The translations under genes and the position numbers were made by a program. The notes under the pieces were generated by a model. It did no database searches and had not been told where the DNA came from. It saw nothing but the letters and a program-made list of their open reading frames with translations. Of a stretch of 64,000 nucleotides of DNA, positions 2-15,249 are shown one piece after another. The stretch is from Candidatus Omnitrophota bacterium (GTDB lineage: Bacteria > Omnitrophota > Gorgyraeia > Zapsychrales > Fredricksoniimonadaceae). The stretch lies in NCBI GenBank assembly GCA_015233335.1, contig JADFXX010000001.1, positions 70,302 through 134,301 of the forward strand. The letters run 5' to 3'. Within the stretch, counting starts at the first letter, position 1. Every line of letters starts with the position of its first letter.

Positions 2-331
2 GAACAAGAAGAGGTCCGTGAATCTTTAAAATCCATTCTGGCAGATCACTATGAACTGATTACAGTTGACTCCCCATCCATGGCTGTTGATATTTTGTCC
101 CACACCAAAGACATCAAAGTCATGCTTTTGAATATTCTTATGCCCCTCACCGAGGGACCGGACGACTTAAAGGAAATAAAAAAGAAATTCCCTCAGTTGA
201 GGGTGATTATGGTGGGCGGGCATAAATCAGCCCAAATCACTGTCCCAGGCGCAAACGGGCACATCGTTAAACCATTTAAACCACAAGAAATATTGGATCT
301 GCTTAAAAAGCACATAACTCCACTGCTCTAA
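2..331 (+). CDS. CheY-like response-regulator receiver protein, 5' end outside window
   Basis: Frame is open from nt 2 (EQEEVRESLKSILADHYELITVDSPSMAVDIL...), so the listed ORF 80..331 is only its Met-initiated tail. DIKVMLLNILMP...LRVIMVGGH...VKPFKPQEILDLL fits the C-terminal half of a receiver domain. Overlaps the stop of the convergent HD-GYP gene by 4 nt. Confidence 0.6.
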   Translation, partial: EQEEVRESLKSILADHYELITVDSPSMAVDILSHTKDIKVMLLNILMPLTEGPDDLKEIKKKFPQLRVIMVGGHKSAQITVPGANGHIVKPFKPQEILDLLKKHITPLL

Positions 332-1515
332 AGCTCGCCTTTATAAAAAAGCTCTACCAAAGCATCAACCGGCTTGCGGTCGAACTGTTTGTTAATCCCC
401 TGCTGGATTTCGAGAATGGCTTTATCCTTACTAAAACCTTTTCGATAGGGCCTGTCGGTAGTCATGGCATCAAAAGCATCTGCCACTGCGATAATAGCCG
501 CGATGATGGGAACGTCCGCTCCTTTGAGCCCCTCGGGATATCCTTTAGCGTCATAACGCTCATGATGATATTTAACGCCGCTGATGACCTCCTCAAAACC
601 TGTTAACGGCGCCAAAATCTCCGCTCCGCGGCTGGTATGGCTTTTCATGATCTCATATTCTTCAGGAGTCAATTTATCTTTTTTAGAAAGAATCGACTCC
701 GGTATGCCGATCTTGCCGATATCATGTAAAAGGCCGGCGATATATAAATTTTCAAAAAATTTATGCGGGAATTTATACGCTTGGGACGCCTCCATCTGGC
801 GTCCTATGGCCAAGGCGTACTTGGTCACCCGTTCGGTATGGCCATGCGTATAGGTGTCCTTGGCTTCTATAGCTGAACCTAAAGCAATAGTGGTCTGGAC
901 AAATAAATTACGGTTACGCTCTGCTTCCGTTCTTAGATCATCAAATAGCTGGGCATTACGAATAGCCATCGCCACATCGCTGGCCAAAGCCGAGAAAAAA
1001 TCAAGTTCTTCCTGGTCAAAACGGCTGCCGTCAATTCTTTCCCCAAGCAGCAAGACAGCTAAAAGTGTATGCTGATAATAAGCCGGCACACAGGCCACCG
1101 CATTTAGTTTTGGCAGCTGTTCACTGACGCTGTGCAAAAGCTGTTTGATCCCATTTCCGTTGGAAATGACACTTTCCCTCCAAAGCAGTTTGTTAATGTC
1201 TTCCACGACCAAGGCATTACGATTTTCAAAAATATATTTATATTCTCTTTTAATAAAAAGCCTGATCAAAGGATGCGTCTTGTTAAAACGGATCAAACCC
1301 TCGGGGATGCGTTCTCCCAATTGCCCTCGGGAAATAGATAAAACATAAATGTCTTTAACAGGGTCATAGAGGATCATTCCCGCATGCTGGATTTGTACTT
1401 TCTGGACGAGGGAGCGGACAATCAGCTTGATGAGCAGGCGGGGGTCGTGGATTAAGATCATCCCTTTGGCCGCAGACTCCAACTCACGCTTATAGTCGAT
1501 TTTTAAGGAAGACAT
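328..1515 (-). CDS. GAF-domain HD-GYP phosphodiesterase (c-di-GMP-type signalling)
   Basis: 395 aa. N-terminal GAF-like region. C-terminal HD-GYP motifs read directly: HTERV, LLHDIGKIGIP, HHERYDAKGYPEGL, ADAFDAMTTDRPYRKG. Confidence 0.9.
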   Translation of the reverse strand: MSSLKIDYKRELESAAKGMILIHDPRLLIKLIVRSLVQKVQIQHAGMILYDPVKDIYVLSISRGQLGERIPEGLIRFNKTHPLIRLFIKREYKYIFENRNALVVEDINKLLWRESVISNGNGIKQLLHSVSEQLPKLNAVACVPAYYQHTLLAVLLLGERIDGSRFDQEELDFFSALASDVAMAIRNAQLFDDLRTEAERNRNLFVQTTIALGSAIEAKDTYTHGHTERVTKYALAIGRQMEASQAYKFPHKFFENLYIAGLLHDIGKIGIPESILSKKDKLTPEEYEIMKSHTSRGAEILAPLTGFEEVISGVKYHHERYDAKGYPEGLKGADVPIIAAIIAVADAFDAMTTDRPYRKGFSKDKAILEIQQGINKQFDRKPVDALVELFYKGEL

Positions 1516-1516
1516 G

Positions 1517-1876
1517 TCAAACCATCAACTGTGCAAGAACAATTTTTTCAAGATCTTCTAAGATAAATGGTTTATGGATATAATCGATAGCTCCCAGTAA
1601 GCGCGCTTCATTGACCGTTTCTTCATCTTCGACACCGGAGACCATGATCACCTTGACCGAAGAGTTACCTTGACGCAGCTGGCGCAAAACTTCGATCCCT
1701 GTCATCTCCTCCATCTTCACATCCAGAAGGACTAAATCCGGGTGCTCTCGCTCGATGAGATCCAATGCCTGACGCCCGCCGGAAGCGACCAGAACTTCAA
1801 TTTGCCGTTTTTTAAAGAAATTCCGGGCAAATTCGCGGATGTCATTTTCATCATCAACAATTAATAATTTGGACAT
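1517..1876 (-). CDS. single-domain CheY-like response regulator
   Basis: 119 aa; KLLIVDDE...DLVLLDVKMEEMTG...KVIMVSG...IHKPF receiver signature. Stop is 1 nt from the HD-GYP start. Confidence 0.9.
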   Translation of the reverse strand: MSKLLIVDDENDIREFARNFFKKRQIEVLVASGGRQALDLIEREHPDLVLLDVKMEEMTGIEVLRQLRQGNSSVKVIMVSGVEDEETVNEARLLGAIDYIHKPFILEDLEKIVLAQLMV

Positions 1877-1897
1877 AATTTCAGTTTACCCAAAACA

Positions 1898-4048
1898 TCA
1901 CCCAATAGCAACAGGCAAAAATAATTTTATCTTCGTGCCCTGCATGAATTTCGAAACCATTTCCACGCGGCCGCCATGGTTCTCTTCCACTATTTTCTTG
2001 ATCACATAAAGGCCCAGTCCCGTCCCTCTTTTACTGGAAAGCTTGGTCGTAAAAAACGGTGTGAACAATTTATGCATATCCTCGTCTTTAACCCCCATGC
2101 CGTTATCTTCAAAAGCAATCTCCGCATAACCGTCTTGTTTAAAAACGCGCACCATCAGGGTGGGCCGGTAATCAGGCTCATTGCTCTCATTCTTCCTTTG
2201 CACCATGGCATCATAGCTGTTATCAATCAAATTAAAAAACACCTCCTGCAACTGGGTAAAATTGCCTTTCACTTTAGGGATCGTCATAGGATCATAATCA
2301 TGGACGACTTTAAGCAGATCTGATTTGATTTTGAACTGCGCCATTTCAAGGGCCGAATTAAATACGGACTGAATATCCACGGCAGAAAAACCCGCCTCAC
2401 CTTTACGCGTATATTTCAAAAGGCCCTGGACAATTTCCCCTCCCTGGACCACATTTTCCTGCACGCGGACAAAAGCCCGCTCCAACTCCGTCATCACATC
2501 CTTCATTTTGTCCGGCATCGGTTCATTCTGATTCAAATGAATGGTATCTAAAGCATCTCCGGCAATAAAGCCCAATGCATGAAATCTGTTATTGATCTGA
2601 TGGGACAGCCCATCCGCCATAGTCCCTATGGTAGCCATTTTTTCGGCCTGAAACAACTGTTGATGGGTCAGCCTTACATCCTCATAAAACTTGGCATTTT
2701 CAATAGCCAAAGCCGCCTGATTTGCCAAAATACTAAAAACAGCAAGATCATCTTCGGTATAAGACATGCCGGATTCTTTTTTACCCATAAAAATAATAGC
2801 AGTCAGGTTCTTATCGATAAAAATGGGGACGACCAATGCCCCTTCAAACGAAGCAATGATCTGTGTAATCTGGACCAGCAAAGGATCCTTGAGGTCCAAG
2901 GCTCTTTGTTTAAATTCCTCATAAACGATAAAACTTTTATTATTCAATAAGTACTCCAGCAAAGGAGAGCTTTTTGCAATCGTATCAATAAACTGGCCCT
3001 TCCCGGATTTTCTCTTGGATGCGCCCAAAACATACTCCTGACGAGCTTCGTCATAAATATAGATGAGCGCATGTTCGATTTGGATCGCTCGTATTAATAT
3101 ATAAACGATCATACCGCACAACTTATTCAAATCCTTGATCCTTCCCATACCGGCTGAAGCCCGTCTTAAAGTTGACTGATACCGCCGCTGCTCTTGTAAC
3201 AGGCGATCCTCTGCTCTTCTTTGAATATAAAGATAAGCAAAGGGGCCGAATGTGGCAAGAACAAGCATCGCCCATATGGCAACTTCCCACAGATGATACT
3301 TATACCCAAAAATAAAAGGGATCCCTAAAACAAAAGCATAAACGCCGATAAATATAGCCGTATTGGATACAACCAGCCGGACATCCATCAAGCGATATCT
3401 AAAAATGGCATAAGTAGCAAGCGCCCCATAAACACAAACAAGGATCTGGCCGTAAGGATAAATATTAAGGCCCCAGGCCGCCGGCGCCGTATTCATCCCG
3501 CCCCCGAAACCGAATATCATAGCAACAAATAAATACTTGGCCTGAATATTAGAAATCCCTTTAGAATTTTTAATATATTGATAAAGCTCATAGAAAGACT
3601 TGCCGACGATAACGCTCCAGATAAACATAAAAAAGTTGTATAAAAGATTCGTCCTGAAATAATAGATCTGATGAAATGAAAAAAAGACCCTGTCTCCGAA
3701 CATCCAATTTGTAAAAACGGTCAAAATAATAAATACCAAAGATTCAAAATATCCAAAGATCAAAAACCGGGAAGACTTTAAATTACAAAATATATAAATG
3801 ACATGATAATAAAACAGCGCGATCAGGATGATACCGACGGTAAACATCTTCCACCCCAAGAAAGCGGTATCATGGTCTGTGGTTGACCCGCTGACAAACA
3901 TGCTGAAACCCCAAAAAGAGATCGAATAATTGACATACGACCACACTTTATGGAGTTTATTCTTCCCAAAAAATGAAATGAGCAAAGCAAGGCCTAAGTT
4001 GATCAAACCAATGCAAAGCCCGGCTATTGAAAAATAATTATTGATCAT
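1898..4048 (-). CDS. polytopic membrane sensor histidine kinase with GAF domain
   Basis: 716 aa. About 280-aa N-terminal region with roughly 8 hydrophobic helices, then a GAF-like segment. H-box GLSHQINNRFHAL. HATPase boxes NLIDNSYDAM, DNGMGV, GTGLGLYV. The ATG (4048-4046) overlaps the PKS TGA (4047-4045) as ATGA. Confidence 0.9.
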   Translation of the reverse strand: MINNYFSIAGLCIGLINLGLALLISFFGKNKLHKVWSYVNYSISFWGFSMFVSGSTTDHDTAFLGWKMFTVGIILIALFYYHVIYIFCNLKSSRFLIFGYFESLVFIILTVFTNWMFGDRVFFSFHQIYYFRTNLLYNFFMFIWSVIVGKSFYELYQYIKNSKGISNIQAKYLFVAMIFGFGGGMNTAPAAWGLNIYPYGQILVCVYGALATYAIFRYRLMDVRLVVSNTAIFIGVYAFVLGIPFIFGYKYHLWEVAIWAMLVLATFGPFAYLYIQRRAEDRLLQEQRRYQSTLRRASAGMGRIKDLNKLCGMIVYILIRAIQIEHALIYIYDEARQEYVLGASKRKSGKGQFIDTIAKSSPLLEYLLNNKSFIVYEEFKQRALDLKDPLLVQITQIIASFEGALVVPIFIDKNLTAIIFMGKKESGMSYTEDDLAVFSILANQAALAIENAKFYEDVRLTHQQLFQAEKMATIGTMADGLSHQINNRFHALGFIAGDALDTIHLNQNEPMPDKMKDVMTELERAFVRVQENVVQGGEIVQGLLKYTRKGEAGFSAVDIQSVFNSALEMAQFKIKSDLLKVVHDYDPMTIPKVKGNFTQLQEVFFNLIDNSYDAMVQRKNESNEPDYRPTLMVRVFKQDGYAEIAFEDNGMGVKDEDMHKLFTPFFTTKLSSKRGTGLGLYVIKKIVEENHGGRVEMVSKFMQGTKIKLFLPVAIG

Positions 4049-7000
4049 TTTATCTTCCCGAGAATACGGTCCATCAAGTGCCGGGGGATATCCTCCCCGG
4101 ACGGGGCAAACAATCGGTCTCTTTTAACCCATAACAATGACTGCTGGGCCACTGCCAATTTTTTACCGTTGTCCAAGAAAATCTCAAAATTCAGGATCAA
4201 CCCTTGTGTATACACCCGGCCTAGATACATCTTCACCACAATACGGTCAAAAGGCATGGCTTCACCCAAATGGTCAATTTTAAACCTTCTGCAAATAAAA
4301 TCGTTTTTGATATCATTCGATAAATATAAATCCGGCCATATTTTATAAAAATAAGTATCCACCGTCCTGCCCACCCATATAGGATAATTAGCGAAATAAA
4401 TATTCCCCACTAAATTAGACTCCTCCAGGGTCGTTGGAATGTGCAATTCGCTTAAGAACAACTGACCGGTCTCATATTCTTTGATTAAATCTCCTAAACC
4501 AAAATGGTCGTTATCATAAAACCCTTTGAACGATTCATGATCAAACACCCCTGATCTTGGCTCCATTTTCTGCATCACATCCTTAAGAAAAGAAGGGAGC
4601 CTGTTCACCCTTGCCTGACCGTGGTCGAGGATCTTAACCCATGATATTCTTTGCAAAACTCTTGCCACTTCTTCGGCAGCGCCATCACCATTGTGCTTTA
4701 AAAAGTCAAAATACAGCTCATAGACATTATCGTTGATTTTATTCCCCAGCCAAACCCTGCCTTCGACGATATCTCCGGCGCTCAATTCTCCTTGAATATC
4801 TACGATCACATTATTGGTAGCAACGCCCCATTCTTTAGTTTCAACCACACCTGCTAATTGTTTTAAGACGGAAACAAGAGCGAATTCCCGTATTTCACCG
4901 ATCCACTCACAGTAGCTGCTAAAATTGACACGCCTGCCGGTTGATTTGCCATGCTTGAATACCACCGGAAATTTCTTAGCAGTCAATAATTTTCCCTGGG
5001 GGCCGGTATAATCCGCATGAAAATGAAAATACTGATCCTCGAACCCCAACTGTTTATTAAGCTCCTGTTCTTGATAAGCGCCCTGCCCCTTAAGCAAAAA
5101 GGTCAGCAATCTTTCGGCGCCCCGGGAAAATTTCACAACAAGACCGATGAATAAATCATCCCCATTTCTCAGGATATAATAATCATTTTTGGATATTTTC
5201 TCGAAGCGCAGGGCTTCTAATGACGCGCCTGGCGATGTTTTGATAAAAGTTTCGATACAAGTCCAAACAACGGTCCCTAAATAATCCCGGGAAGCCCCCT
5301 CACTATCCTTGATGATCGCGTATTTATCCCCTCCCAGCAAAGACAGCCATTCCTCGGAGGTCCTCGGAGAAATCGTTTGAATATCAATGCCATGCTCCTT
5401 TGGCCCCACGGAACACAGGATTAAATTGTGCTCATGGGTAACCGATAAATGGACCTCGGGCCCACCATCGGTTTCAGCCAGAGGTTTTCCATATTGGTCC
5501 CATTTAATCTCAAGCTTTATTGATTTTTCAAATTTTCTTAAATAATCCTGTACGACTTTGTTCAGAAAAGGCAATTCTTCCTGGTGCCTGTGCCCTTTAG
5601 ATATTTTTTCTAAATCGGGAATATACTGCAAAGCCGTCAGGGGAAATTTGACCCCCAATTCGCGCTCATATTTAGCTATCAAATCTTTGAGGATGATTTG
5701 ATCTCTTTGGCAAGGGTTGACAATGTCACCGGCCCGGGGATTATCGGGAAGGCTTTCGAGGATTTTTAAAACACAATTCTTAATTCTGACGGACTCATCA
5801 GCGCTGTTGACCGCCTGGGCATCCCCGCGATAATGTTCCATATCCGTACGTAATATTTCAGACAACACAAGTTTATGCTCTGCCGATCTTTGATGAGTTC
5901 CCACTTCTATTTCTTCAATATAATTCGGCAAACAAGCATCCTGGGACACGATCAATTGCATGGACTGCAAAACAGAATCGATGAAGAACGGATCACCGGT
6001 CAAGTATTTTGAAGATGAACCGTTAAAAACAGAGGTAAAAAGACATTCGCCTTTTTTCGTCTTCTCGTCATAGCAAAGCTCATGGATCCGGTCAATACGC
6101 TGAAAACTCTTGCCTTGAAACAAAATCGGCCCATACAGATCCCTTTGGGGAACAATATCCAGCACATTTGCGATTTTTCTTTCTTTACCGTTCTTCTTTG
6201 GTCGCACAGCTGTATCTTCAAGCTCAAACACAGCTGAAAAATGCGGTTTTCTGTATCCTGACTCTTGGGTATAGATCTCGACTTTAACGCTCAATACGTC
6301 ATCCTTTGAAACTTTTTCTAAAACCTGAGCATGAATTTCGATGGTAGCTCCGGTATCTTCAGAAACCGGGATCGGTCTTTTAAGTTCAATATTTCTTGCT
6401 TTGATATGATCCAAGCCCCGCAGCCCCAAAACCTGCACAACAGCCTGCGCCATAGCCTCCAGTCCAAAAACAAACGGAAAGAGCAAAGACCCCTTCCAAT
6501 TATGGTCCAATAAATAAGGGTCCTCTTTGACATTAAGGTGCGCCTGGGCGATCAATTCAACGCCAAGAAGGAAATATTTAATTTCCTCGATAAATCGAAA
6601 ATGATTAGCCTTAAAAGGTGCCATTTTCCAGGTTTCAAGTCCGGCTAATCTGGCACTCACAATAACCTGCTCAACACCCGGCTCAGTTTCTACCAATTGT
6701 CTAAAGCGCTTAACCCCCTCTGCAACAGATATCGATCCGATCCCTTTTTGGGCAAGGCGGCCAACACTGCCTAATTTGACCCCCATACCGACTTCATCCC
6801 AAATGCTATACGCCACCGAAACAACCTGTGTAGAGGGATGCCGCAATTTAAATTGATGAAGATATAAGTTTAAAATCTCATTAGACAGGCCATACCAACC
6901 GCTTGCCTCCATGCCGGTCAGGCCGATAATTGAGGTAATGCCAACGATCATTTTAGGCGGAGCATCCGACAGGGCACGACAAATATGAACAGCCCCCATC

Positions 7001-10000
7001 ACCTTAGGCAGCGATTCAACGAAAACATCGTTCACGCTTGACTGCTTGAGACGTTTTAGGCTGTTTAAACCTGCCCCATGAATGAATCCAGTGATCTGAC
7101 CCCGAGTTTCCCTGATCTGTTTAATGATGAGGGCAACACTATTTTCATCAGTCACATCACACTGATAATAGCTGGCCTTTAAATGTTCCCCTTCGAACTG
7201 TTTTAATGTCTGAACAATTTCATTACTTTCATCTTTATTGTCCTTAGGGCACGCTGAACGCCCGACCAATATCATCTGCGCTTGGGTAGTCCGGGCAAAT
7301 TCTAAAGCACATTGTGCGCTGACACCTTTGGCTCCCCCTGTGACTATAACGACATCCTGCGGCCCCCATGCGATACCGCGCTTTTTGTAATCTGCCGGCT
7401 GCGAAGTTTCATAATACGCCACTTTTCTGATCAGTTTCGAATCATAGGCAATCGCACTAAACCGCTCATAGGTTTGAAGTTCGTCCATAATGCTCGATGC
7501 AATTTCACTCTCAGAGGATTGAATATCGAAATCAATAACTCTCACCTTCAATTGCGGGCTCTCAAGAAGCAACGTTGATACCAAAGATTTAGCTGAGGAT
7601 GAAGCAATTCCGCCCCCCCATTGAACAACAACTATAAAAGTATCTGGGCTTAAGGGATGAGAATACACCAAACCGATCAGTTTATGCATTCTTTGGATGA
7701 TCTCTTTTAAAGAATTTTTGTCAAAATCACCTGATTGTCTTGGTCTGGGGAGGATCGTGATCAGGCAATCCATGGGCCCGGTGTTTGCGGTCTTATCATC
7801 GTAACAGATCTTTTGTGTTTTGATCTTCTGATCTTTAAACTCCCGGGTGATCCGATCAGCCAGAGGCTCATCCTCTTGTGAAAGGATTATCACCCGCTTT
7901 AATTCCTTAAGCTGATTAACGTTGCGGGTTTTGATCTCTTCCGGCTTAAAATCAAGGATGAAATTCCTGACCCATGTTTTCTCATGGTAACGTTTTAAGA
8001 TTTCGCCGACTGATTCTTCATAAGATCCTGCTTGGGCCAGAACAGCCAACTCGTTGAGCTGGTCCCTGATTTCTCCTAAAGTGTTATTGGAAAGCTTCGT
8101 GGGATCCGCTTGTCCTGCCACTCCAAGCAGACGTCCCGCCCGGGCAATAAGTTCTGCCGCCTTAATGGAATCCAAATTCAGGTCATCCAGCAGTCTTGAG
8201 TTCAAAGCAATCGATTCTTTATCAAAACCTGTGATCTGATGGGTCAGATCGATCAAAAGATCAGCGATGTTATCCTTACCTCTAACTTGAGCCGGCAGGC
8301 CTCCGGGTATGATTTCTGCCGTTGACTGAAGCGTCCCTGCGGTTTGCGGCAGCTTTCGTAAAAGTTCAGTTTTCAAAATTTGATCGGCGATTTTCAGCGG
8401 ATATTCACACTGGTTCTCGATGAATCTTTTTCTAGATGCTGGGACAAATGTTCTGATCAGCCTGTTTTTATATAGATCTTCCCATTGAACAGGAATATTA
8501 CGTACAAACAATTCAGCAAGTACAATATTTAAATCACGGTCATTATAGGCGCTCGATTCGACAGGCAGACAAAGGGGGCCTTGGCCTTTATTGATGGCAC
8601 GGACCAAGTCTGTCAGCACTCGTCCGGGGCCGACTTCGATTAAAACATCGCACTCTTGAGCAATAACCCCAACCAAACCGACAAAATCAACGGGCAAAAT
8701 CACCTGCTTAGAAAAGTATTCTTTAATATTGACTAAAGCGCCGATGACCGCGGAATTGATGCCTGAATAAAGCCTGATCCCATTGGGTTTAAAAATTTCA
8801 GGGAGGATCCGGCAGGACCGGATCTTTTTTGAGACCGGCACCATCAAAGGAGAATGAAACGCTCCCGAAACATTCAAACGATGGGTCGAAATATCCTGGG
8901 CTTGGGCGGACTTGATTATTTTCTCAATTTCTTGATTCCCTCCGGACACGATCACCTGATTTGGGCTATTGATATTAGCCAGAACAATGTTGCCTTTGAC
9001 CTTAAAGACAAGTTCTTCGGCTTTGAGTTTTGAACAAAATAAACTAACCATGCCGCCGCCCAATCGTCCTTGGGTTGCCATCAATGCTCCGCGCAGCTGG
9101 GCAAATTGAATAAGAGTTTGCCGATCAAAAGCGCCGGCTTTATAAAAGGCTGTTAATTCACCCAAACTGTGGCCGGCAACAAGATCAGGCTCTATATGAA
9201 GCCGGGACAAAAATTCCGTCCAAATCAGAGAACTTAGGACGATTGCCGGCTGAGTGATTTTGGTGTCCGATAGTTGTTTTTCAAATTCTTGGGTCGTCTC
9301 TTGGCCAAAGAACTGATCGACGGATTTATAGATACTCTCGGACAAGGGTAGTTTAGACAGCGCGAGCAAATCCCGTGCCCATCCAAAACGTTGAGTTAAA
9401 ACCCGGGTCATATTCAAACGCTGTGAACCCTGTCCGGGATATAAAAACCCTATCCGGCACCCCTTAACCGCGCGGCTTAAAAGGATCAGTGTTGCGGGAT
9501 CATTGGCTTTGACGGGATGAATTTGACCTTCATCCAGTGAGGCAGTGTTGATTGCCTCTTCGAGTAAAACCATAGCGTCATACAAATGTTCGGGTGAATC
9601 TGTGACAATAGCCGCCTTGACCGAAAAGCTGTTCTTGGCTTTCTTATTTAAAAACGCAGCCAAGTCCGCCATTTCAGCGATACTGATATTGCGCAGGTCT
9701 TCTTTGAATTTTGCGATAATTTTCTTAAGATGAGCAACGGTCCGGGAGGTAAAGACAAAAACCTCACTCTGCTGGGGACTGACAAATAATGCCCCCTCGT
9801 CGATCTTAGGTTTTATGGCTTCGAGGGGCTTGTCATAAGATTCAACAGCCACATGACAGTTGATCCCTCCGAATCCGGCCGATGATATCCCCGCCCTAAC
9901 GGACTTGGCTGGTGATAGTACCGCTCCTTGAATAAGCGGATACAAATTCTTGGCCTTATCTTTGAAAACATCATTAGGTTTTACACAGCTGGCCGTAGGA

Positions 10001-11442
10001 GGCAAAATACGCTGATTAACGGCTAATACAGCTTTGATAAGGCCTCCGATACCTGCGGCTGCCTTAGTATGGCCGACAATGGATTTAAAGGAAGTAATCC
10101 CGCATTTCTGCAATTTCTCAGTTCCTGCAGGTATACTTTGTTCTATGGCCAAAGCGATGCCCTCAAGCTCAACCCGATCTCCCTTGGTTGTTCCGGTGCC
10201 GTGACCTTCAACAAAATCAACCTCAGCGATCTTATACTTAAGGTCCTTATAGGCACGTTTGATGGCCAATGATTGACCGCTCGAAGACGGTTCCATGATC
10301 CCGCCTTTACCGTCAGATGAGATCCCCCAGCCTTTGATGAGGGCATAAATGTAATTTTTATCCCTGAGAGCATCCTCTAGTCTTTTTAAAAGCACAAAGC
10401 CGCATCCCTCGCCGGGCAGAAAGCCATTGGCCCCCTGGTCATAAACAGACATTTTATCCCGGGCCAGAGCGCCGGCTTTGGCGAATCCCACTAATTCAAA
10501 TGGGTCAAGGCTGATATCCACCCCTCCGGCTAAAGCCAGGTCCACATTCTTCATTTTTAAAGCATCGGCGGCCGTCGCGACAGCCAGCAAAGATGATGAA
10601 CAAGCGCCGTCGACGATATACCCGCCGCCCTTTAAATTTAAATAGTTACAGATACGCCCGGCGATCGTATTGGCCAGGCCTCCGGCCAGAGAGTCTTCTG
10701 TAATAGGATAAAATGCTGATTTATAGACCTGTTCCATTTCAAGGGCAATATTGTGGCGCTCCTCCAAACCCATGCCGCGCCTCGACAATGTTGCATTCAA
10801 TACTTTTTGAACATACGGCCAGCGCAAGCGCAGGGTTTGGGAGCGTGTCTGCTCACCGGTCAGGGTGTTACCGACGATGACGCAGGTGTTTAAAAGAGGA
10901 ATTTCATTGAATTTGTAACCCGCATTTTCAAAAGTCTTAAGCGCCACATCCAAAGCCAGCCAATGCGCGACATCCGTTGATTCAACGGTTTTGCGGGGGA
11001 TCCGCAGCCGGCCCCAATCAAATACAAAATTTTCTAAAAAGGCAGCTTTGGTCAGGTAGGTTTTGTCCGAGGCTTTAGCATCGGCATCGTAGTATTCGCT
11101 CAAAGGCAGTCTCTGGTCTAACATCCGGCGAAACTGAATGCGGCGGGCCAGAATATTTTCCCAAAGTTCCTTGATATTGGAGGCCCCCGGATAATAACAG
11201 GCAAGCCCGATCACAGCGATGTCAGAAGAACTAAGAGGCAATTCCCTGGCTGACGGACGAGAGATCCCCTTTTTCCCTAAGAAATCTTCAATGATCTTTT
11301 TATAAGCACCGGTAATTTTTTGGGCCTTTTTCCAGCGATAATAATTGACCGTATGGGTATCAATACTGCGGCACAGGCCGACAACAGACAATTTTGCCTG
11401 GACTCGAAACCTTTCTAATTCTTTGAATAATTGACGGCTCAT
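4045..11442 (-). CDS. iterative type I polyketide synthase, enediyne-PKS-like (HTH-like N-term / KS-AT-ACP-KR-DH-PPTase / tandem hot-dog thioesterase)
   Basis: 2,465 aa. Approximate domain spans in nt: HTH-like 11269-11442; KS 9832-11226 (DGACSSSL, HGTGT, GHTKAAAG); AT 8563-9453 (GHSLGE, GAFHS); ACP 8038-8280 (LNLDSIKAAE); KR 6643-7359 (VTGGAKGVS, YGLSN); DH 5743-6600 (HNWKGSLLFP, DSVLQ); Sfp-type PPTase 5083-5640 (YGKP, HGIDIQ, WTCIETFIK); 4HBT-like hot-dog repeats 4573-5040 and 4048-4515 (IYFANYPIWVGRTVD). Confidence 0.9.
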   Translation of the reverse strand: MSRQLFKELERFRVQAKLSVVGLCRSIDTHTVNYYRWKKAQKITGAYKKIIEDFLGKKGISRPSARELPLSSSDIAVIGLACYYPGASNIKELWENILARRIQFRRMLDQRLPLSEYYDADAKASDKTYLTKAAFLENFVFDWGRLRIPRKTVESTDVAHWLALDVALKTFENAGYKFNEIPLLNTCVIVGNTLTGEQTRSQTLRLRWPYVQKVLNATLSRRGMGLEERHNIALEMEQVYKSAFYPITEDSLAGGLANTIAGRICNYLNLKGGGYIVDGACSSSLLAVATAADALKMKNVDLALAGGVDISLDPFELVGFAKAGALARDKMSVYDQGANGFLPGEGCGFVLLKRLEDALRDKNYIYALIKGWGISSDGKGGIMEPSSSGQSLAIKRAYKDLKYKIAEVDFVEGHGTGTTKGDRVELEGIALAIEQSIPAGTEKLQKCGITSFKSIVGHTKAAAGIGGLIKAVLAVNQRILPPTASCVKPNDVFKDKAKNLYPLIQGAVLSPAKSVRAGISSAGFGGINCHVAVESYDKPLEAIKPKIDEGALFVSPQQSEVFVFTSRTVAHLKKIIAKFKEDLRNISIAEMADLAAFLNKKAKNSFSVKAAIVTDSPEHLYDAMVLLEEAINTASLDEGQIHPVKANDPATLILLSRAVKGCRIGFLYPGQGSQRLNMTRVLTQRFGWARDLLALSKLPLSESIYKSVDQFFGQETTQEFEKQLSDTKITQPAIVLSSLIWTEFLSRLHIEPDLVAGHSLGELTAFYKAGAFDRQTLIQFAQLRGALMATQGRLGGGMVSLFCSKLKAEELVFKVKGNIVLANINSPNQVIVSGGNQEIEKIIKSAQAQDISTHRLNVSGAFHSPLMVPVSKKIRSCRILPEIFKPNGIRLYSGINSAVIGALVNIKEYFSKQVILPVDFVGLVGVIAQECDVLIEVGPGRVLTDLVRAINKGQGPLCLPVESSAYNDRDLNIVLAELFVRNIPVQWEDLYKNRLIRTFVPASRKRFIENQCEYPLKIADQILKTELLRKLPQTAGTLQSTAEIIPGGLPAQVRGKDNIADLLIDLTHQITGFDKESIALNSRLLDDLNLDSIKAAELIARAGRLLGVAGQADPTKLSNNTLGEIRDQLNELAVLAQAGSYEESVGEILKRYHEKTWVRNFILDFKPEEIKTRNVNQLKELKRVIILSQEDEPLADRITREFKDQKIKTQKICYDDKTANTGPMDCLITILPRPRQSGDFDKNSLKEIIQRMHKLIGLVYSHPLSPDTFIVVVQWGGGIASSSAKSLVSTLLLESPQLKVRVIDFDIQSSESEIASSIMDELQTYERFSAIAYDSKLIRKVAYYETSQPADYKKRGIAWGPQDVVIVTGGAKGVSAQCALEFARTTQAQMILVGRSACPKDNKDESNEIVQTLKQFEGEHLKASYYQCDVTDENSVALIIKQIRETRGQITGFIHGAGLNSLKRLKQSSVNDVFVESLPKVMGAVHICRALSDAPPKMIVGITSIIGLTGMEASGWYGLSNEILNLYLHQFKLRHPSTQVVSVAYSIWDEVGMGVKLGSVGRLAQKGIGSISVAEGVKRFRQLVETEPGVEQVIVSARLAGLETWKMAPFKANHFRFIEEIKYFLLGVELIAQAHLNVKEDPYLLDHNWKGSLLFPFVFGLEAMAQAVVQVLGLRGLDHIKARNIELKRPIPVSEDTGATIEIHAQVLEKVSKDDVLSVKVEIYTQESGYRKPHFSAVFELEDTAVRPKKNGKERKIANVLDIVPQRDLYGPILFQGKSFQRIDRIHELCYDEKTKKGECLFTSVFNGSSSKYLTGDPFFIDSVLQSMQLIVSQDACLPNYIEEIEVGTHQRSAEHKLVLSEILRTDMEHYRGDAQAVNSADESVRIKNCVLKILESLPDNPRAGDIVNPCQRDQIILKDLIAKYERELGVKFPLTALQYIPDLEKISKGHRHQEELPFLNKVVQDYLRKFEKSIKLEIKWDQYGKPLAETDGGPEVHLSVTHEHNLILCSVGPKEHGIDIQTISPRTSEEWLSLLGGDKYAIIKDSEGASRDYLGTVVWTCIETFIKTSPGASLEALRFEKISKNDYYILRNGDDLFIGLVVKFSRGAERLLTFLLKGQGAYQEQELNKQLGFEDQYFHFHADYTGPQGKLLTAKKFPVVFKHGKSTGRRVNFSSYCEWIGEIREFALVSVLKQLAGVVETKEWGVATNNVIVDIQGELSAGDIVEGRVWLGNKINDNVYELYFDFLKHNGDGAAEEVARVLQRISWVKILDHGQARVNRLPSFLKDVMQKMEPRSGVFDHESFKGFYDNDHFGLGDLIKEYETGQLFLSELHIPTTLEESNLVGNIYFANYPIWVGRTVDTYFYKIWPDLYLSNDIKNDFICRRFKIDHLGEAMPFDRIVVKMYLGRVYTQGLILNFEIFLDNGKKLAVAQQSLLWVKRDRLFAPSGEDIPRHLMDRILGKIK

Positions 11443-11463
11443 AGGAAGAATTTAATTTATACA

Positions 11464-11487
11464 ACAATTGTTACATATAACAATTGT
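11464..11487. promoter_or_regulatory. operator-like palindrome ACAATTGTTACATATAACAATTGT
   Basis: 22 of 24 positions are self-complementary. Contains two copies of the ACAATTGT core. Lies 22-45 nt upstream of the PKS start codon and overlaps the putative -10 element. Confidence 0.45.
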
Positions 11488-11510
11488 AACAAACAGTAAA
11501 CGGCAGTCAA
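11483..11510 (-). promoter_or_regulatory. putative sigma70-type promoter of the PKS operon
   Basis: The minus strand reads TTGACT (11510-11505), a 16-nt spacer, then TACAAT (11488-11483), about 40 nt upstream of the ATG at 11442. Confidence 0.45.
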
Positions 11511-11616
11511 TTTTTTATCATTATTTTTTTATAACACCAAAGAAAGCGCTATCTCAAAATAACTCATAGACCCTACAAGCGACATATTTATATGTTATAT
11601 TTTATAGTAGAAAGGT

Positions 11617-14600
11617 GTGAGTGTAATGAACGTCCCCATATCCCCTATTCCATCATTGCGAAGACCATTTTTTATACATTGGTTATCTCCTGTCATTTTA
11701 TCGGCTTTTCTTGTCAATTCAATCGGCCCAATGCCGGCCTATGGGCAAACAGATGAACTCAAGCTTCCTCTTGCGGGGGTCATGGTACGTTTAAGCCCGC
11801 CGCTTGATCCTCCCATGCTTAAAGGCATCAAGGTTTATCCTGATAACCCGTTTAGATTTGATTTTATCCTTGACCGGGGAGAAAACGAATTGTCGAGTGA
11901 CGCCCTTAAAGACGAATCCGGCAAACTCATTAAATATTTCCTTTCTTCGTTGACCATTCCAGAAAAAGACCTTTGGGTCAACCTCTCTCCTTATGAGAAA
12001 GAACGTATCATCCCCAACAGCTTTGGCTTAACCCAAATGGGCAGAGATCTATTAGCACAGGATTATGTCCTTAAGCAAATTACAGCCTCTTTAATTTATC
12101 CTGAAGATATTATTGGAAAGAATTTCTGGAAGCGTGTTTATGAAGAGGCCGCTAAACGTTACGGATCAACGGATATTCCTGTCAACACATTCAACAAGGT
12201 CTGGATCGTGCCTGATAAGGCCGTTGTCTATGAGAATGCGAAAGCGGGCACGGCCTATGTGATTGAAAGCAAATTAAAGGTCATGCTTGATCAGGATTAT
12301 CTATCCTTGGAGAAAAGCCAAACGCCAACCAGGGGACATTTGCCCGAAGGGCATGTGTCCCCAAGCCGCTTGCCAACCAATGAAGGGTTGCAGCTGAAAG
12401 CAACCCAGGTTAACAACCAATCGACAAGCAACTTGCCAGCCAAAGAAGGGTTGCAATTGAAAGCACCCCAGGGAAACAACGCTGCGACAAGCGAAGATAT
12501 CAACTCCCTCGGCTCACAGATCATCCGCGAAATCGTAATCCCCCAACTCACTCGTGAGGTTAATGAAAATAAAAATTTTACCAAACTTCGACAGGCCTAC
12601 AACAGCCTTATTCTAGCCACATGGTACAAGAAAAAAATAAAGGACAGCATCCTCTCACAGGTTTATACCGATAAAAATAGGATCGCGGGCATCACGGTGG
12701 ATGATCCTCAAGAGAAAGAAAAGATTTACCAGCGCTATTTACAGGCATTTAAGAAAGGCGTTTATAACTACATCAAAGAAGAAGTCGATCCTCTAACGCA
12801 GCAAATCATACCAAGAAAGTACTTCTCCGGCGGTATAAGCGGGACTAATTTAAGTTTAAATGTTTTCAGGACAACTTCTCAGAAACCGGATACCGCCATG
12901 CTCGCACTGCGCCGTGCAAAGGTCATTCAAATCGTTTTAAGGCTCCCAAGCACCTTAAAGCAGCTGATCACCGGTAGCAATCTTAAGGGAAAGGTCAAAG
13001 AAGTTTTTGGGGAAGACATTGATGCGTTAAGACAATTAGGTTTTCGTGATTCAGAATTAACACAAGCCTTAAGCGGCGACATGTCAGGACAATGGCGCTT
13101 TGGCGTTCCCTTTGATTTAACAGCATCTGAAGAAAACACCATAAGGCAGGAGTTTATCAATATGATCAACAGCAGGTCCCAAGACCCCTACAAAGAAATC
13201 GTTCTCTATGCTGTAGGCTTGGGCGTCGAGCCCAAAGAGGCTTTGGATGTAATCAAATTATTCTACAAGGTATTAAGCGATTCCGGGTTAAATCCACAGG
13301 ACTGGCATTTGACTTTTATCGGTATTGATAAATCCCCTGACATTGTGAACAATGCCAATGATCAATTATCCGCATACAGGAGAGCTTCGGGACTTTCTGA
13401 AGACAATCTTTATACGGCAGCCGTTGAAGCCAATGCTCTTTCGCCTGACGCATTGCAGGAAATCTTCAAGAATCAGGGCCGCGGCAAAAAGGCAGACATT
13501 GTTCTTAATAGACATACCCATTACGGAAATCTGCTCAATCAGCTAAGGCACTTCACTTTCGATGCCATCAGAGAGCACGATCATTATCGCAAGCAGGCTT
13601 TGAACGTATTTTTACAAATTAAAAATATCTTCACAGCATTGACAAGGCCGTCCTGTTTATACGTCACTGACGAAGGAGAAAACGCATTGATCATTCCCGG
13701 CGCAAAAATGGAAGGAAAATCCGGCGGCATGTACAGAGTTGTTGAGCCGACTAAAAACTTTTCACTGCATGACCTTTTTAAAGATTTAGCCATGCAGGCG
13801 AAAAACCCAAGTAAAGTTATAAATGTCATCACAGGCGCAGAAAAAGGAGATACCAGTGTCCTCTTGGGAATGGTTGCCGATGAATTACAAATCAGGGGCA
13901 TGGAAGGAACAGTAGCTCTGATCGGTCTTGGAAACACTCCTTGGCCGTTTTTAGAAACAGCTGAAATATTTCCAAAGGCCAAGGTCCTAGGCATTGACGA
14001 AGAAGAAAACTTGGTCAGCTTTCAGAATAAAAACCTGGAAGCTTATCCCGAACTGTTAAAAAATGAACGGGTTTCCATAAAAAGAGGTGATGCAACTGAT
14101 CTAAGTAAGACCGAGGGAGGGCGGATTTCGATCGCGGATCAAACTGTTGGATTTGTCTATTTTCAAAACGTATTCGATCTATATATCCAAAGCCCCGAAA
14201 ATATTCTGAAAATGCTCAGAGAGGCCATACGCGTTTTAAAGCCGGGTGGTTATTTGTACGTTGATGACGGGGCTGGAACATTAAATAGAAGTAAAGAATG
14301 GTTTAAGAGTGATCCTGAAAAATTAAGAATAATCAAAACCATCGAGAACGAGTTAAAAGATAAAATGAAAGATCTTAATCTGGCGGACTCGGTATCCTGG
14401 ATATACCAAAAGAACGATCGGGCGATGATCAATAAACCCGTTAAAAAAACTCCCAATCTAACACGTGCCCAGGCAGAAAAAGCGATCGGCTCACAGCTGC
14501 TTGATAAAATCAAAAGACAATATGGCAATACAGCTCCTTTGTCAGTTGTTGTTGAATCAACGCCGGATAGTGTTGTGATCGGAATTGAAGATCAGGGAAG

Positions 14601-15249
14601 AAAGATTTTCTCGGCAGCTTTCTCTGACAGCCAAAACTGGGGCCCTCAAAGTCATGGACAGACCCATGTTATTAACGAAAAAACCTTAACAAGCTATATC
14701 AAGCCCCCCACAGAGCAAAACTTACTTTATCTGCACTCGATACAGACGAATTATACCCTGTCGGAAAGCGGATTAGGCCGGCAAATCGTAGCTAATTTAT
14801 TAAAATTTTATGGGGAGAACAACGGATATACCCAAATGTCTTTAATACCTGACACTGATAATGACCAATGGATCATCACAAGCCGGGACGGTCAGGTCAT
14901 AGAGAGCCACTATAATGATGATTTAGACAGGATGCCCATTAAACCACAACCTATCACAAGCGCCGTACGTACAATAAACAATTTAAAAGGAGTGTCTATA
15001 AGCCAAAAGGCTTCCAAACAATATACGGCAGTGACCAATGCTCAAAACGGTGGTATTGACCTAACCCCCGCCAAAATGAATTTACAGACTCAAACGGATT
15101 CACGTTTCCCCGGTAATGATATGGGGATCAAATTCAACATTGACCCTGTCATGCTTGAAGAATTACGCAATGCCCCGGGCTTTGTTGCCCTCATCATCAA
15201 TATCCAGCCGCTTAACAGTCTTGGCGAGTTCTTAGGAGATAAAAATTAA
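11617..15249 (+). CDS. large orphan protein with N-terminal signal/anchor, conserved unknown N-domain, class I SAM-methyltransferase-fold region(s) and unknown C-terminal module
   Basis: 1,210 aa. GTG at 11617; an ATG at 11626 with AAAGGTG upstream is a likelier start. Hydrophobic N-terminus HWLSPVILSAFLVNSIGPMPAYG. Methyltransferase-like segment VLGIDEEENLV...IKRGDATDL...LREAIRVLKPGGYLYVDD. A weaker second Rossmann-like segment LYAVGLGVEP...FIGIDKSPDIV. C-terminal GGIDLTPAKMNLQTQ...APGFVALIINIQPLNSL. Confidence 0.6.
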   Translation: MSVMNVPISPIPSLRRPFFIHWLSPVILSAFLVNSIGPMPAYGQTDELKLPLAGVMVRLSPPLDPPMLKGIKVYPDNPFRFDFILDRGENELSSDALKDESGKLIKYFLSSLTIPEKDLWVNLSPYEKERIIPNSFGLTQMGRDLLAQDYVLKQITASLIYPEDIIGKNFWKRVYEEAAKRYGSTDIPVNTFNKVWIVPDKAVVYENAKAGTAYVIESKLKVMLDQDYLSLEKSQTPTRGHLPEGHVSPSRLPTNEGLQLKATQVNNQSTSNLPAKEGLQLKAPQGNNAATSEDINSLGSQIIREIVIPQLTREVNENKNFTKLRQAYNSLILATWYKKKIKDSILSQVYTDKNRIAGITVDDPQEKEKIYQRYLQAFKKGVYNYIKEEVDPLTQQIIPRKYFSGGISGTNLSLNVFRTTSQKPDTAMLALRRAKVIQIVLRLPSTLKQLITGSNLKGKVKEVFGEDIDALRQLGFRDSELTQALSGDMSGQWRFGVPFDLTASEENTIRQEFINMINSRSQDPYKEIVLYAVGLGVEPKEALDVIKLFYKVLSDSGLNPQDWHLTFIGIDKSPDIVNNANDQLSAYRRASGLSEDNLYTAAVEANALSPDALQEIFKNQGRGKKADIVLNRHTHYGNLLNQLRHFTFDAIREHDHYRKQALNVFLQIKNIFTALTRPSCLYVTDEGENALIIPGAKMEGKSGGMYRVVEPTKNFSLHDLFKDLAMQAKNPSKVINVITGAEKGDTSVLLGMVADELQIRGMEGTVALIGLGNTPWPFLETAEIFPKAKVLGIDEEENLVSFQNKNLEAYPELLKNERVSIKRGDATDLSKTEGGRISIADQTVGFVYFQNVFDLYIQSPENILKMLREAIRVLKPGGYLYVDDGAGTLNRSKEWFKSDPEKLRIIKTIENELKDKMKDLNLADSVSWIYQKNDRAMINKPVKKTPNLTRAQAEKAIGSQLLDKIKRQYGNTAPLSVVVESTPDSVVIGIEDQGRKIFSAAFSDSQNWGPQSHGQTHVINEKTLTSYIKPPTEQNLLYLHSIQTNYTLSESGLGRQIVANLLKFYGENNGYTQMSLIPDTDNDQWIITSRDGQVIESHYNDDLDRMPIKPQPITSAVRTINNLKGVSISQKASKQYTAVTNAQNGGIDLTPAKMNLQTQTDSRFPGNDMGIKFNIDPVMLEELRNAPGFVALIINIQPLNSLGEFLGDKN
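12369..12492 (+). repeat. in-frame tandem duplication, 63-nt period, 2 copies
   Basis: CTTGCCAACCAATGAAGGGTTGCAGCTGAAAGCAACCCAGG... (12369-12429) against CTTGCCAGCCAAAGAAGGGTTGCAATTGAAAGCACCCCAGG... (12432-12492), roughly 80% identical. Encodes LPTNEGLQLKATQVNNQSTS / LPAKEGLQLKAPQGNNAATS. Confidence 0.85.

Follow-up and report, generated by a model that had tools for sequence, protein, structure and literature searches.

Some bacterial enzymes are repressors as well, with a DNA-binding domain in the same polypeptide. PutA combines a ribbon-helix-helix domain with proline dehydrogenase and 1-pyrroline-5-carboxylate (P5C) dehydrogenase, BirA a winged helix-turn-helix (HTH) domain with biotin ligase, and NadR an HTH domain with nicotinamide mononucleotide (NMN) adenylyltransferase. 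These bifunctional enzyme-repressors are known as trigger enzymes, and what defines them is that DNA binding is modulated by the catalytic or loading state of the enzyme. Separate, cluster-situated regulators usually control polyketide and fatty-acid megasynthases, and no earlier description of an HTH domain fused to a polyketide synthase (PKS) was found in the literature searched. Here, we have analysed a stretch of 64,000 nucleotides from a Candidatus Omnitrophota bacterium (contig JADFXX010000001.1, positions 70,302 to 134,301; hereafter the window), in which an open reading frame (ORF) of 2465 aa (4045-11442, minus strand) encodes a PKS with an HTH-like domain at its N-terminus and a palindrome over its promoter. 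With modest confidence, we favour the reading that an iterative type I PKS of an Omnitrophota/Planctomycetes-Verrucomicrobia-Chlamydiae (PVC) lineage has gained a small autoregulatory HTH protein as its N-terminus by gene fusion, and that the fusion protein represses its own promoter. In other lineages, the same small protein is encoded on its own, by the translationally coupled leading gene of operons for polyketide/fatty-acid-type synthases.

The likeness to PutA, BirA and NadR lies in a small N-terminal domain of DNA-binding type that is covalently joined to an enzyme, here in one continuous 2465-aa ORF in the window and in its orthologues, and in a dyad, here a candidate operator, in the own promoter, so that autorepression would be expected. 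The differences are that the enzyme is an iterative PKS megasynthase, and that the domain, a Cro/C1-like HTH with four helices, belongs to an uncurated family. With Cro/C1 and C proteins (434 Cro, P22 c2, SinR, C.BclI and C.Esp1396I) the domain shares the predicted fold, the size of about 60 aa and the paired dyads over its own promoter. A further likeness is seen in free-standing members of the family (comparison loci are numbered L and comparison proteins P), where the -10 hexamer ends 7-8 nt before the start codon (L006, L011, L026 and L027), a leaderless-like layout typical of cI and C-protein genes. In contrast to Cro/C1 proteins, the domain stays below the curated thresholds of HTH_3, HTH_19 and HTH_31, its best sub-threshold similarity being to HTH_Tnp_1_2; it has four helices and not five, and in the window it forms the N-terminus of a PKS and not a free protein.

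The synthase itself resembles PksE (SgcE/CalE8) and PfaA-type enzymes in its order of ketosynthase (KS), acyltransferase (AT), acyl carrier protein (ACP), ketoreductase (KR) and dehydratase (DH) domains, in the names of its closest relatives and in its hotdog (4HBT-type) thioesterase. The latter is a separate protein in enediyne systems, whereas it is fused C-terminally in the window PKS, which also differs by its N-terminal HTH and by having no phosphopantetheinyl transferase (PPTase) domain detectable with Pfam at E up to 1. Moreover, its gene is accompanied by those of a histidine kinase, a receiver and an HD-GYP protein, and not by enediyne tailoring genes.

The N-terminal domain and its relatives

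Pfam places the KS domain at aa 73-485, which bears out the first-pass annotation in its claim that an extension, aa 1-72, stands before a KS beginning near aa 73. The same annotation had recognized the spacing of an XRE HTH in the first residues, and at the level of the predicted fold this agrees with the models. An AlphaFold2 model of aa 1-67, built from a 23-sequence alignment, has four helices and a predicted local distance difference test (pLDDT) score of 83. When this model was compared with the PDB by Foldseek, nearly all of the top 50 structures were of the Cro/C1-XRE type (TM 0.5-0.65, probability up to 0.96), with C.BclI, SinR, HipB, 434 Cro and repressor, P22 c2, CylR2, ClgR, DdrO, HigA2, CapH and Mbf1 among the neighbours. 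In BFVD, which holds viral models, CI repressors and HTH_XRE proteins were found with probability 0.99, and over both databases the values were TM 0.5-0.69 and probability up to 1.0.

Comparisons at the sequence level pointed the same way as the structure, albeit without significance. A family profile retrieved mostly XRE repressors from the PDB sequences, in register from residue 1 (best E 0.034), and hhalign aligned the family in register with a bona fide HTH_3 protein (E 1.7e-4). When each of the 23 members was run against Pfam, the families that matched more than a few of them were nearly all HTH: HTH_Tnp_1_2 in 19, HTH_23 in 12, HTH_Tnp_1 and HTH_3 in 10 each, and HTH_26 in 7. The HTH_3 matches were sub-threshold (best E 0.0064), and HTH_Tnp_1_2, the commonest neighbour of the family at this level, reached E 2e-5. 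The top PHROGs families were mostly transcriptional regulators, CI-like repressors and terminase small subunits. As to the window protein, there was no match to HTH_3 (PF01381) at E up to 1, and HTH_Tnp_1 (PF01527; 15.6 vs 24.1 bits) and HTH_Tnp_1_2 (PF13022; 14.3 vs 27.9 bits) remained below their cut-offs. The domain is thus predicted to be an HTH of DNA-binding type with a Cro/C1-like fold, belonging to an uncurated family and not demonstrably a member of Pfam HTH_3.

Residues W37, F54 and L55 are invariant across the family. The domain is strongly basic, with a net charge of +9 and a pI of 10.15 for aa 1-60 compared with a pI of 7.5 for the rest of the PKS; for the 23 family members the pI ranges from 9.6 to 10.9.

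An exhaustive HMMER scan of 1.84 billion representative proteins yielded 18 relatives of the domain; in each case the match covers aa 1 to about 60 and sits at the very N-terminus of the target. A word-indexed protein search with the 72-aa extension gave no match, which, given the 18 HMMER relatives, reflects the sensitivity limit of that search. When aa 1-420 were used as query, the closest PKS orthologues (68-77% identical, about 2500 aa in total) were found to share the extension and to begin with MSxQL, and they derive from metagenome-assembled genomes (MAGs) assigned to Candidatus Omnitrophota or 'Planctomycetales'. Remoter PKSs begin directly at the KS.

The free-standing relatives are proteins of 61-70 aa, and six distinct loci with readable downstream sequence were available for them (Table 1). 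At five of the six, the HTH gene comes first and overlaps its neighbour in an operon for a dissociated KR/KS/DH/ACP synthase. One of these proteins, P0134, is a tandem double domain. The suggestion that the HTH might be a separate gene elsewhere was borne out, in that a small HTH gene heads synthase operons in other lineages, and the proposal of a gene fusion between a small repressor and the PKS is therefore directly supported.

The promoter and the candidate operator

The strong sigma70-like promoter noted upstream of the PKS was found again, as TTGACT and TACAAT separated by 16 nt. It matches the consensus at 10 of 12 positions and ranks first among the six promoter-like sites in the 2 kb scanned, and its spacer ends in TGn, giving an extended -10. 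With the usual distance of about 7 nt, transcription would start near 11476. The promoters of the orthologous loci are always strong as well (TTGACA-16/17-TAnAAT-like), with the -10 located 38-48 nt before the ATG and followed by TTAC/GTAA-rich repeats.

The palindrome overlapping this promoter is likewise as first described. The 24-mer, ACAATTGTTACATATAACAATTGT on the plus strand, differs from its own reverse complement at two positions, is thus self-complementary at 22 of 24, and consists of perfect 10-nt arms around a 4-nt centre. No second copy exists in the window at up to 3 mismatches (0 expected), and its dyad score was reached by 0.5% of dinucleotide shuffles of the 100-nt upstream region. 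Since a search with the 16-mer matches both unit A and unit B (Table 1), the 24-mer is best taken as two 16-bp dyads side by side, with CAATTG at the centre of each. Unit A spans the -10 and the presumed transcription start. The core of unit B, ACAnnTGT, lies outside the promoter hexamers, yet all of six orthologous promoters retain it unchanged. The distance between the centres of the inner half-sites, TTGTTA-N4-TAACAA, is 10 bp, as is usual for an HTH dimer.

An RNA element was considered for the same region and rejected: the transcribed part folds at -2.7 kcal/mol (z = +0.36), no more stable than shuffled sequences. Rfam likewise gave no match for 11200-11800 at E up to 1.

The motif was then followed across loci. 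Exact copies of ACAATTGT occur twice each in the window, L030 and L023, and once each in L001, L002, L008, L016 and L028. Dyads of this type are present at 8 of 19 loci bearing the domain vs none of the four PKS relatives that have no domain, and upstream of these four relatives none of the motif words was found. The first 17 loci comprise 178.8 kb with 10 ACAATTGT sites, and 8 of these sites are found within the 1.7 kb that precede domain genes, an enrichment of about 400-fold. The word is present in 6 of these 17 loci, whereas 1000 shuffles gave 0.10 on average and 2 at most. Among 8-mers it is shared by the largest number of loci, with the -35 word ranking behind it, and TAACAA/TTGTTA is the top 6-mer (11 of 17 loci). 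The 16-bp dyad, at up to 2 mismatches, has five matches in 179 kb, of which four are located upstream of domain genes (units A and B, L011 and L018).

In an alignment of six orthologous promoters the only invariant parts are the -35, TACAnTTG, which comprises the -10 and the left arm, and ACAnnTGT, which is the right arm. Because the right arm is downstream of the -10, its conservation is not explained by promoter function. Other loci carry variants of the same arrangement: L028 has a perfect 18-bp dyad, L030 the same two units with another spacer, and L012 the compensating arms ACACTTGT and ACAAGTGT. The free-standing members are flanked by dyads of their own, in three copies each, one of which lies over the own promoter (Table 1). 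In all, promoters with an overlapping dyad were seen for at least eight members of the family. Judged from these comparisons, the dyad motif appears to travel with the domain, as a statistical and phylogenetic association. Comparison by eye of the recognition-helix residues (aa 31-40) with the presence of ACAATTGT across the loci gave no clear pattern; the sequences are too few.

A perfect 24-bp palindrome, AAACTGTAACAATTGTTACAGTTT, with the 16-bp core TGTAACAATTGTTACA, is found in L002 (3405-3428), where it stands some 45 nt ahead of genes for FadL/Toluene_X outer-membrane channels, which are followed by the orthologous PKS. The same regulator may have a second operator here, which would give a small regulon of channel and PKS genes; no such site is present at the equivalent spot in L001.

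On the other side of the window promoter, a 15-nt inverted copy (80% complementary) of the operator centre 11466-11480 occurs at 11588-11602, adjoining the divergent gene's weak promoter-like site (TATAGT, 11603-11608). Either a further, weak site or chance in AT-rich sequence could account for this copy.

Table 1. Features of the HTH-PKS locus and of related loci (window positions unless a locus is named)
Feature	Position	Strand	Remarks
-35 hexamer TTGACT of the PKS operon promoter	11505-11510	minus	TTGAC invariant in the alignment of six orthologous promoters
-10 hexamer TACAAT with preceding TGn	11483-11488	minus	TACA invariant in the six orthologous promoters
24-nt palindrome ACAATTGTTA-TATG-TAACAATTGT	11464-11487		stretches between the centres of units A and B
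Unit A, 16-bp imperfect dyad TGTTACAATTGTTATA (as read on the minus strand)	11476-11491		CAATTG centre; 2 mismatches to the perfect TGTAACAATTGTTACA in L002; direct-repeat family D1, period 16
Unit B, 16-bp imperfect dyad TGTAACAATTGTTGTA (as read on the minus strand)	11460-11475		2 mismatches to TGTAACAATTGTTACA; about +2 to +17 of the predicted transcript
ATG of HTH-PKS	11440-11442	minus	same MSxQL start in all fused orthologues
HTH domain, codons 2-58	11269-11439	minus	four predicted helices: 3-15, 20-27, 31-40, 46-58
Linker, codons 59-72	11227-11268	minus	length and sequence vary among orthologues; predicted disordered, pLDDT <50 at 61-72 (HTH+KS model)
PKS body	4045-11226	minus	Pfam: KS 73-485, AT 666-944, ACP 1062-1125, KR 1365-1549, DH 1630-1897, 4HBT-type hotdog thioesterase 2172-2286
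Downstream co-oriented genes	328-4048	minus	7TM-GAF histidine kinase 1898-4048; receiver-only protein 1517-1876; GAF-HD-GYP protein 328-1515
L011, TGTATCAATTGATACA, three copies	1549-1564, 1787-1802, 1822-1837
L026, ACAATA-N8-TATTGT, three copies	around 2510-2545, 2950-3080
L027, TGTTATAACA, three copies	around 3460-3490, 3700-3790
P0131, P0132, P0135 and L028 protein	first gene, overlaps start of next gene		dissociated synthase operon: KR, (receiver in L006), KS, FabA/ApeI-like DH, KS, ACP, KS
P0129, P0134			mobile-element-like contexts: ArdA, integrase; small unknown genes

The synthase operon and its surroundings

With its domain order (KS-AT-ACP-KR-DH-hotdog thioesterase) the 2465-aa ORF is an iterative type I PKS of the enediyne/polyunsaturated fatty acid (PUFA)-like kind. 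Its nearest named relatives in the databases are called 'enediyne polyketide synthase' or 'PfaA-like', and it stays far below the NCBIfam cut-offs both for PfaA (TIGR02813; 505.8 vs 1010.1 bits) and for PKS_plus_SDR (NF045894; 534.6 vs 1740 bits). It is a relative, and not a member, of the PksE and PfaA families.

The start of the histidine kinase gene overlaps the PKS stop, and the PKS, histidine kinase, receiver and HD-GYP genes probably form one operon; the gene order downstream of the PKS matches that of L001. No further DNA-binding protein was found beside the window PKS, and the receiver has no output domain. More widely, the PKS is surrounded by a giant methyltransferase-containing ORF and by UPF0102, ferrochelatase and ribonucleotide reductase genes, those upstream being unrelated. 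The giant ORF (1210 aa, 11617-15249, plus strand) is divergent to the PKS and carries a class I methyltransferase at aa 770-900, the remainder having no family match; its real start is likely the ATG at 11627, behind AAGGTG. Its place is taken in L001 and L002 by Toluene_X porin genes on the PKS strand, while the flanks (superoxide dismutase, ribonucleotide reductase, ferrochelatase and UPF0102) are syntenic.

A receiver-only response regulator lacking an output domain is encoded both in the fused operon of the window (1517-1876) and in the operon with a free-standing HTH in L006 (1841-2242), and the two might conceivably act jointly, receiver and HTH forming a split response regulator. The GAF-HD-GYP protein that closes the window operon (328-1515) is a putative cyclic di-GMP (c-di-GMP) phosphodiesterase. 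P0021, a relative of the window PKS with 61% identity over the KS, has an N-terminal PilZ domain, a c-di-GMP receptor, where the window has the HTH (28.3 bits vs a cut-off of 22.5). Regulatory domains seem to have been attached repeatedly to the N-terminus of this PKS clade, and P0021 hints at a general docking point for signal input. In another KS-containing relative, P0119, Sigma70_r4_2 scores above the Pfam cut-off at aa 547-598, directly C-terminal of the KS; this may be a frameshifted or chimeric gene call, or another DNA-binding fusion.

Two loci from one metagenome sample share a 1.2-kb block (L004 4691-5880 and L023 3648-4851, 80% identical) that holds an XRE/HTH_3 gene and a gene with an LTD domain (PEP-CTERM-like). 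The block precedes a fused HTH-PKS in L004, and a free-standing HTH with a type II-like KR-KS-DH-KS-ACP-KS operon in L023; both blocks are located downstream of Rhs/YD-repeat toxin genes. The arrangement looks like a cassette with exchangeable synthases, and it is a Rosetta-stone fusion pattern.

Two HTH-PKS paralogues per MAG were seen twice, L013 with L018 (JANPFV01) and L015 with L020 (CAYIQK01), each gene having its own strong promoter and differing downstream repeats. L018 has AGTAACAATTATTACA, and L013 has direct repeats of the TTACTGTTAA type, which suggests that operator specificities have diverged within one genome. Finally, in L021 (2710-3010) only the tail of the domain (..LVGKFLEKK) stands before the KS, with unrelated GC-rich sequence in frame upstream. 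The contig may be chimeric or the HTH disrupted, and this locus was left out of the analysis.

The proposed autoregulation, its alternatives and its meaning

Several observations weigh against an autoregulatory HTH. Every Foldseek E-value was 0.07 or above, which is expected because the domain is a 60-residue helical one, and no curated Pfam or NCBIfam HTH model is passed by the window protein. HppE, whose XRE-like domain has no known role in transcription, is among the structural neighbours in the PDB. A model of HTH plus KS (aa 1-520) confirmed a folded HTH and a disordered linker, but with a pLDDT of 59 it is too poor to judge packing on the KS. As to the operator, the extension and the promoter-overlapping dyads are kept among orthologues, but four fused loci (L004, L013, L014 and L015) have no significant dyad or have different repeats. 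The left arm overlaps TACAAT, so that part of the motif conservation is promoter conservation; many of the loci are orthologous and hence not independent; and the control set of relatives without the domain is four, three of them from GC-richer genomes. In L004 and L023, moreover, a canonical HTH_3 gene two genes upstream could be the binder.

Some of these points also speak for the main rival, namely that the HTH fold does not bind DNA, which is possible, as in HppE, although we regard it as rather unlikely here. The domain would then be a protein-protein, docking or regulatory module, contacting for example the receiver-only protein or partner enzymes, and the dyads would be read by an unlinked regulator. 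Such a role would fit the failure of the curated HTH models, the presence of HppE and Mbf1 (XRE folds without classical repressor function) among the structural neighbours, and the orthologues with no clear dyad. It would also fit the translational coupling of the free-standing versions to KR/KS genes, as is often seen for subunits, and the receiver-only protein in the fused operon and in one type of free-standing operon. On the other hand, the dyad accompanies the domain in both its fused and unfused forms and is absent upstream of the four relatives without it, and members outside synthase operons, in ArdA and integrase contexts, have their own repeated dyads over promoters. The uniformly very basic character of the domain also argues against a mere docking role, as does the tandem two-domain member, which suggests that the domain functions as a dimer, as it would in binding an operator.

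A second alternative would place the extension outside the working PKS, with translation from a TTG (aa 68) or a GTG (aa 77), and with the upstream codons as a leader or the remnant of a small ORF. We hold this to be very improbable. It is true that no Shine-Dalgarno sequence precedes the ATG at 11442 (AAATTCTTCCTATG), as the first-pass annotation had pointed out, and that both downstream codons are in frame, the TTG behind AGGGAA. However, the window and more than 12 orthologues, which come from independent assemblies, all have an unbroken frame from extension to PKS, and the two other frames are stop-rich over the extension. Among ten fused orthologues the codon identity to the window over the extension follows pos2 > pos1 > pos3, so that amino acids are conserved with third positions near saturation. 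Several orthologues also have a good Shine-Dalgarno sequence at the equivalent ATG (GGAGG in L013, AGGAG in L018 and GGGGG in L030). An in-frame TAA at 11452-11454 lies 12 nt upstream of the ATG, and the ORF can therefore start no earlier than 11442. Owing to the common MSxQL start, the Shine-Dalgarno sequences in some orthologues, the codon-position pattern and the upstream stop, the uncertainty about the true start thus appears to be largely removed in favour of the ATG at 11442. A downstream codon as the only start is unlikely; an additional internal start, giving some HTH-less enzyme, is possible. The extension is a real, translated and separately folded domain.

The idea that the palindrome is chance AT-rich symmetry around the -10, or an RNA element such as a leader hairpin or riboswitch, has very little probability in our view, for although the region is AT-rich, TACAAT by itself gives five of the eight bases of the left ACAATTGT and a dyad score reached by 0.5% of shuffles is not astronomically rare, the right arm is invariant in six orthologous promoters outside the hexamers while spacer and leader vary, the motif is strongly enriched upstream of domain genes, and the left arm, overlapping the -10, would not be transcribed.

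For the autoregulatory fusion, we infer DNA binding by the domain, repression, a dimer-on-dyad geometry and the stoichiometry as follows. A linker of about 14 aa would join the basic, Cro/C1-like domain of 58 aa to the KS that follows it. In type I PKSs and fatty-acid synthases the KS is an obligate homodimer, and a PKS dimer should therefore present two HTH domains near its two-fold axis. The tethered pair would bind units A and B, and thereby cover the -10, the start near 11476 and the first transcribed positions (about +2 to +17) of the sigma70-type promoter that would drive the operon of PKS, histidine kinase, receiver and HD-GYP genes. Bound protein would block RNA polymerase, so that build-up of the PKS would throttle its own operon, i.e. 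negative autoregulation.

That the megasynthase is a true trigger enzyme is a more speculative proposal, which we consider unlikely on present grounds. Whether the HTH pair is bound to the operator or released from it would then depend on the enzyme's state, e.g. acyl loading of ACP and KS, build-up of product or membrane association, or on signals from the histidine kinase, receiver and HD-GYP protein (c-di-GMP). If this were true, lipid or polyene synthesis would feed back on transcription without a separate regulator.

If the autoregulatory reading is correct, the list of enzyme-repressors exemplified by PutA, BirA and NadR would extend to megasynthases, and a domain of about 60 aa together with the 16-bp dyad TGTAACAATTGTTACA would make a compact, portable repressor/operator pair from uncultivated bacteria of the PVC group. 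The occurrence of the domain in separate and fused form in closely related cassettes of one sample would be a clean natural Rosetta-stone fusion. To our knowledge, almost nothing is known about regulation in Omnitrophota, and the small, uncurated HTH family, which marks polyene/lipid synthase operons, may aid genome mining in this phylum.

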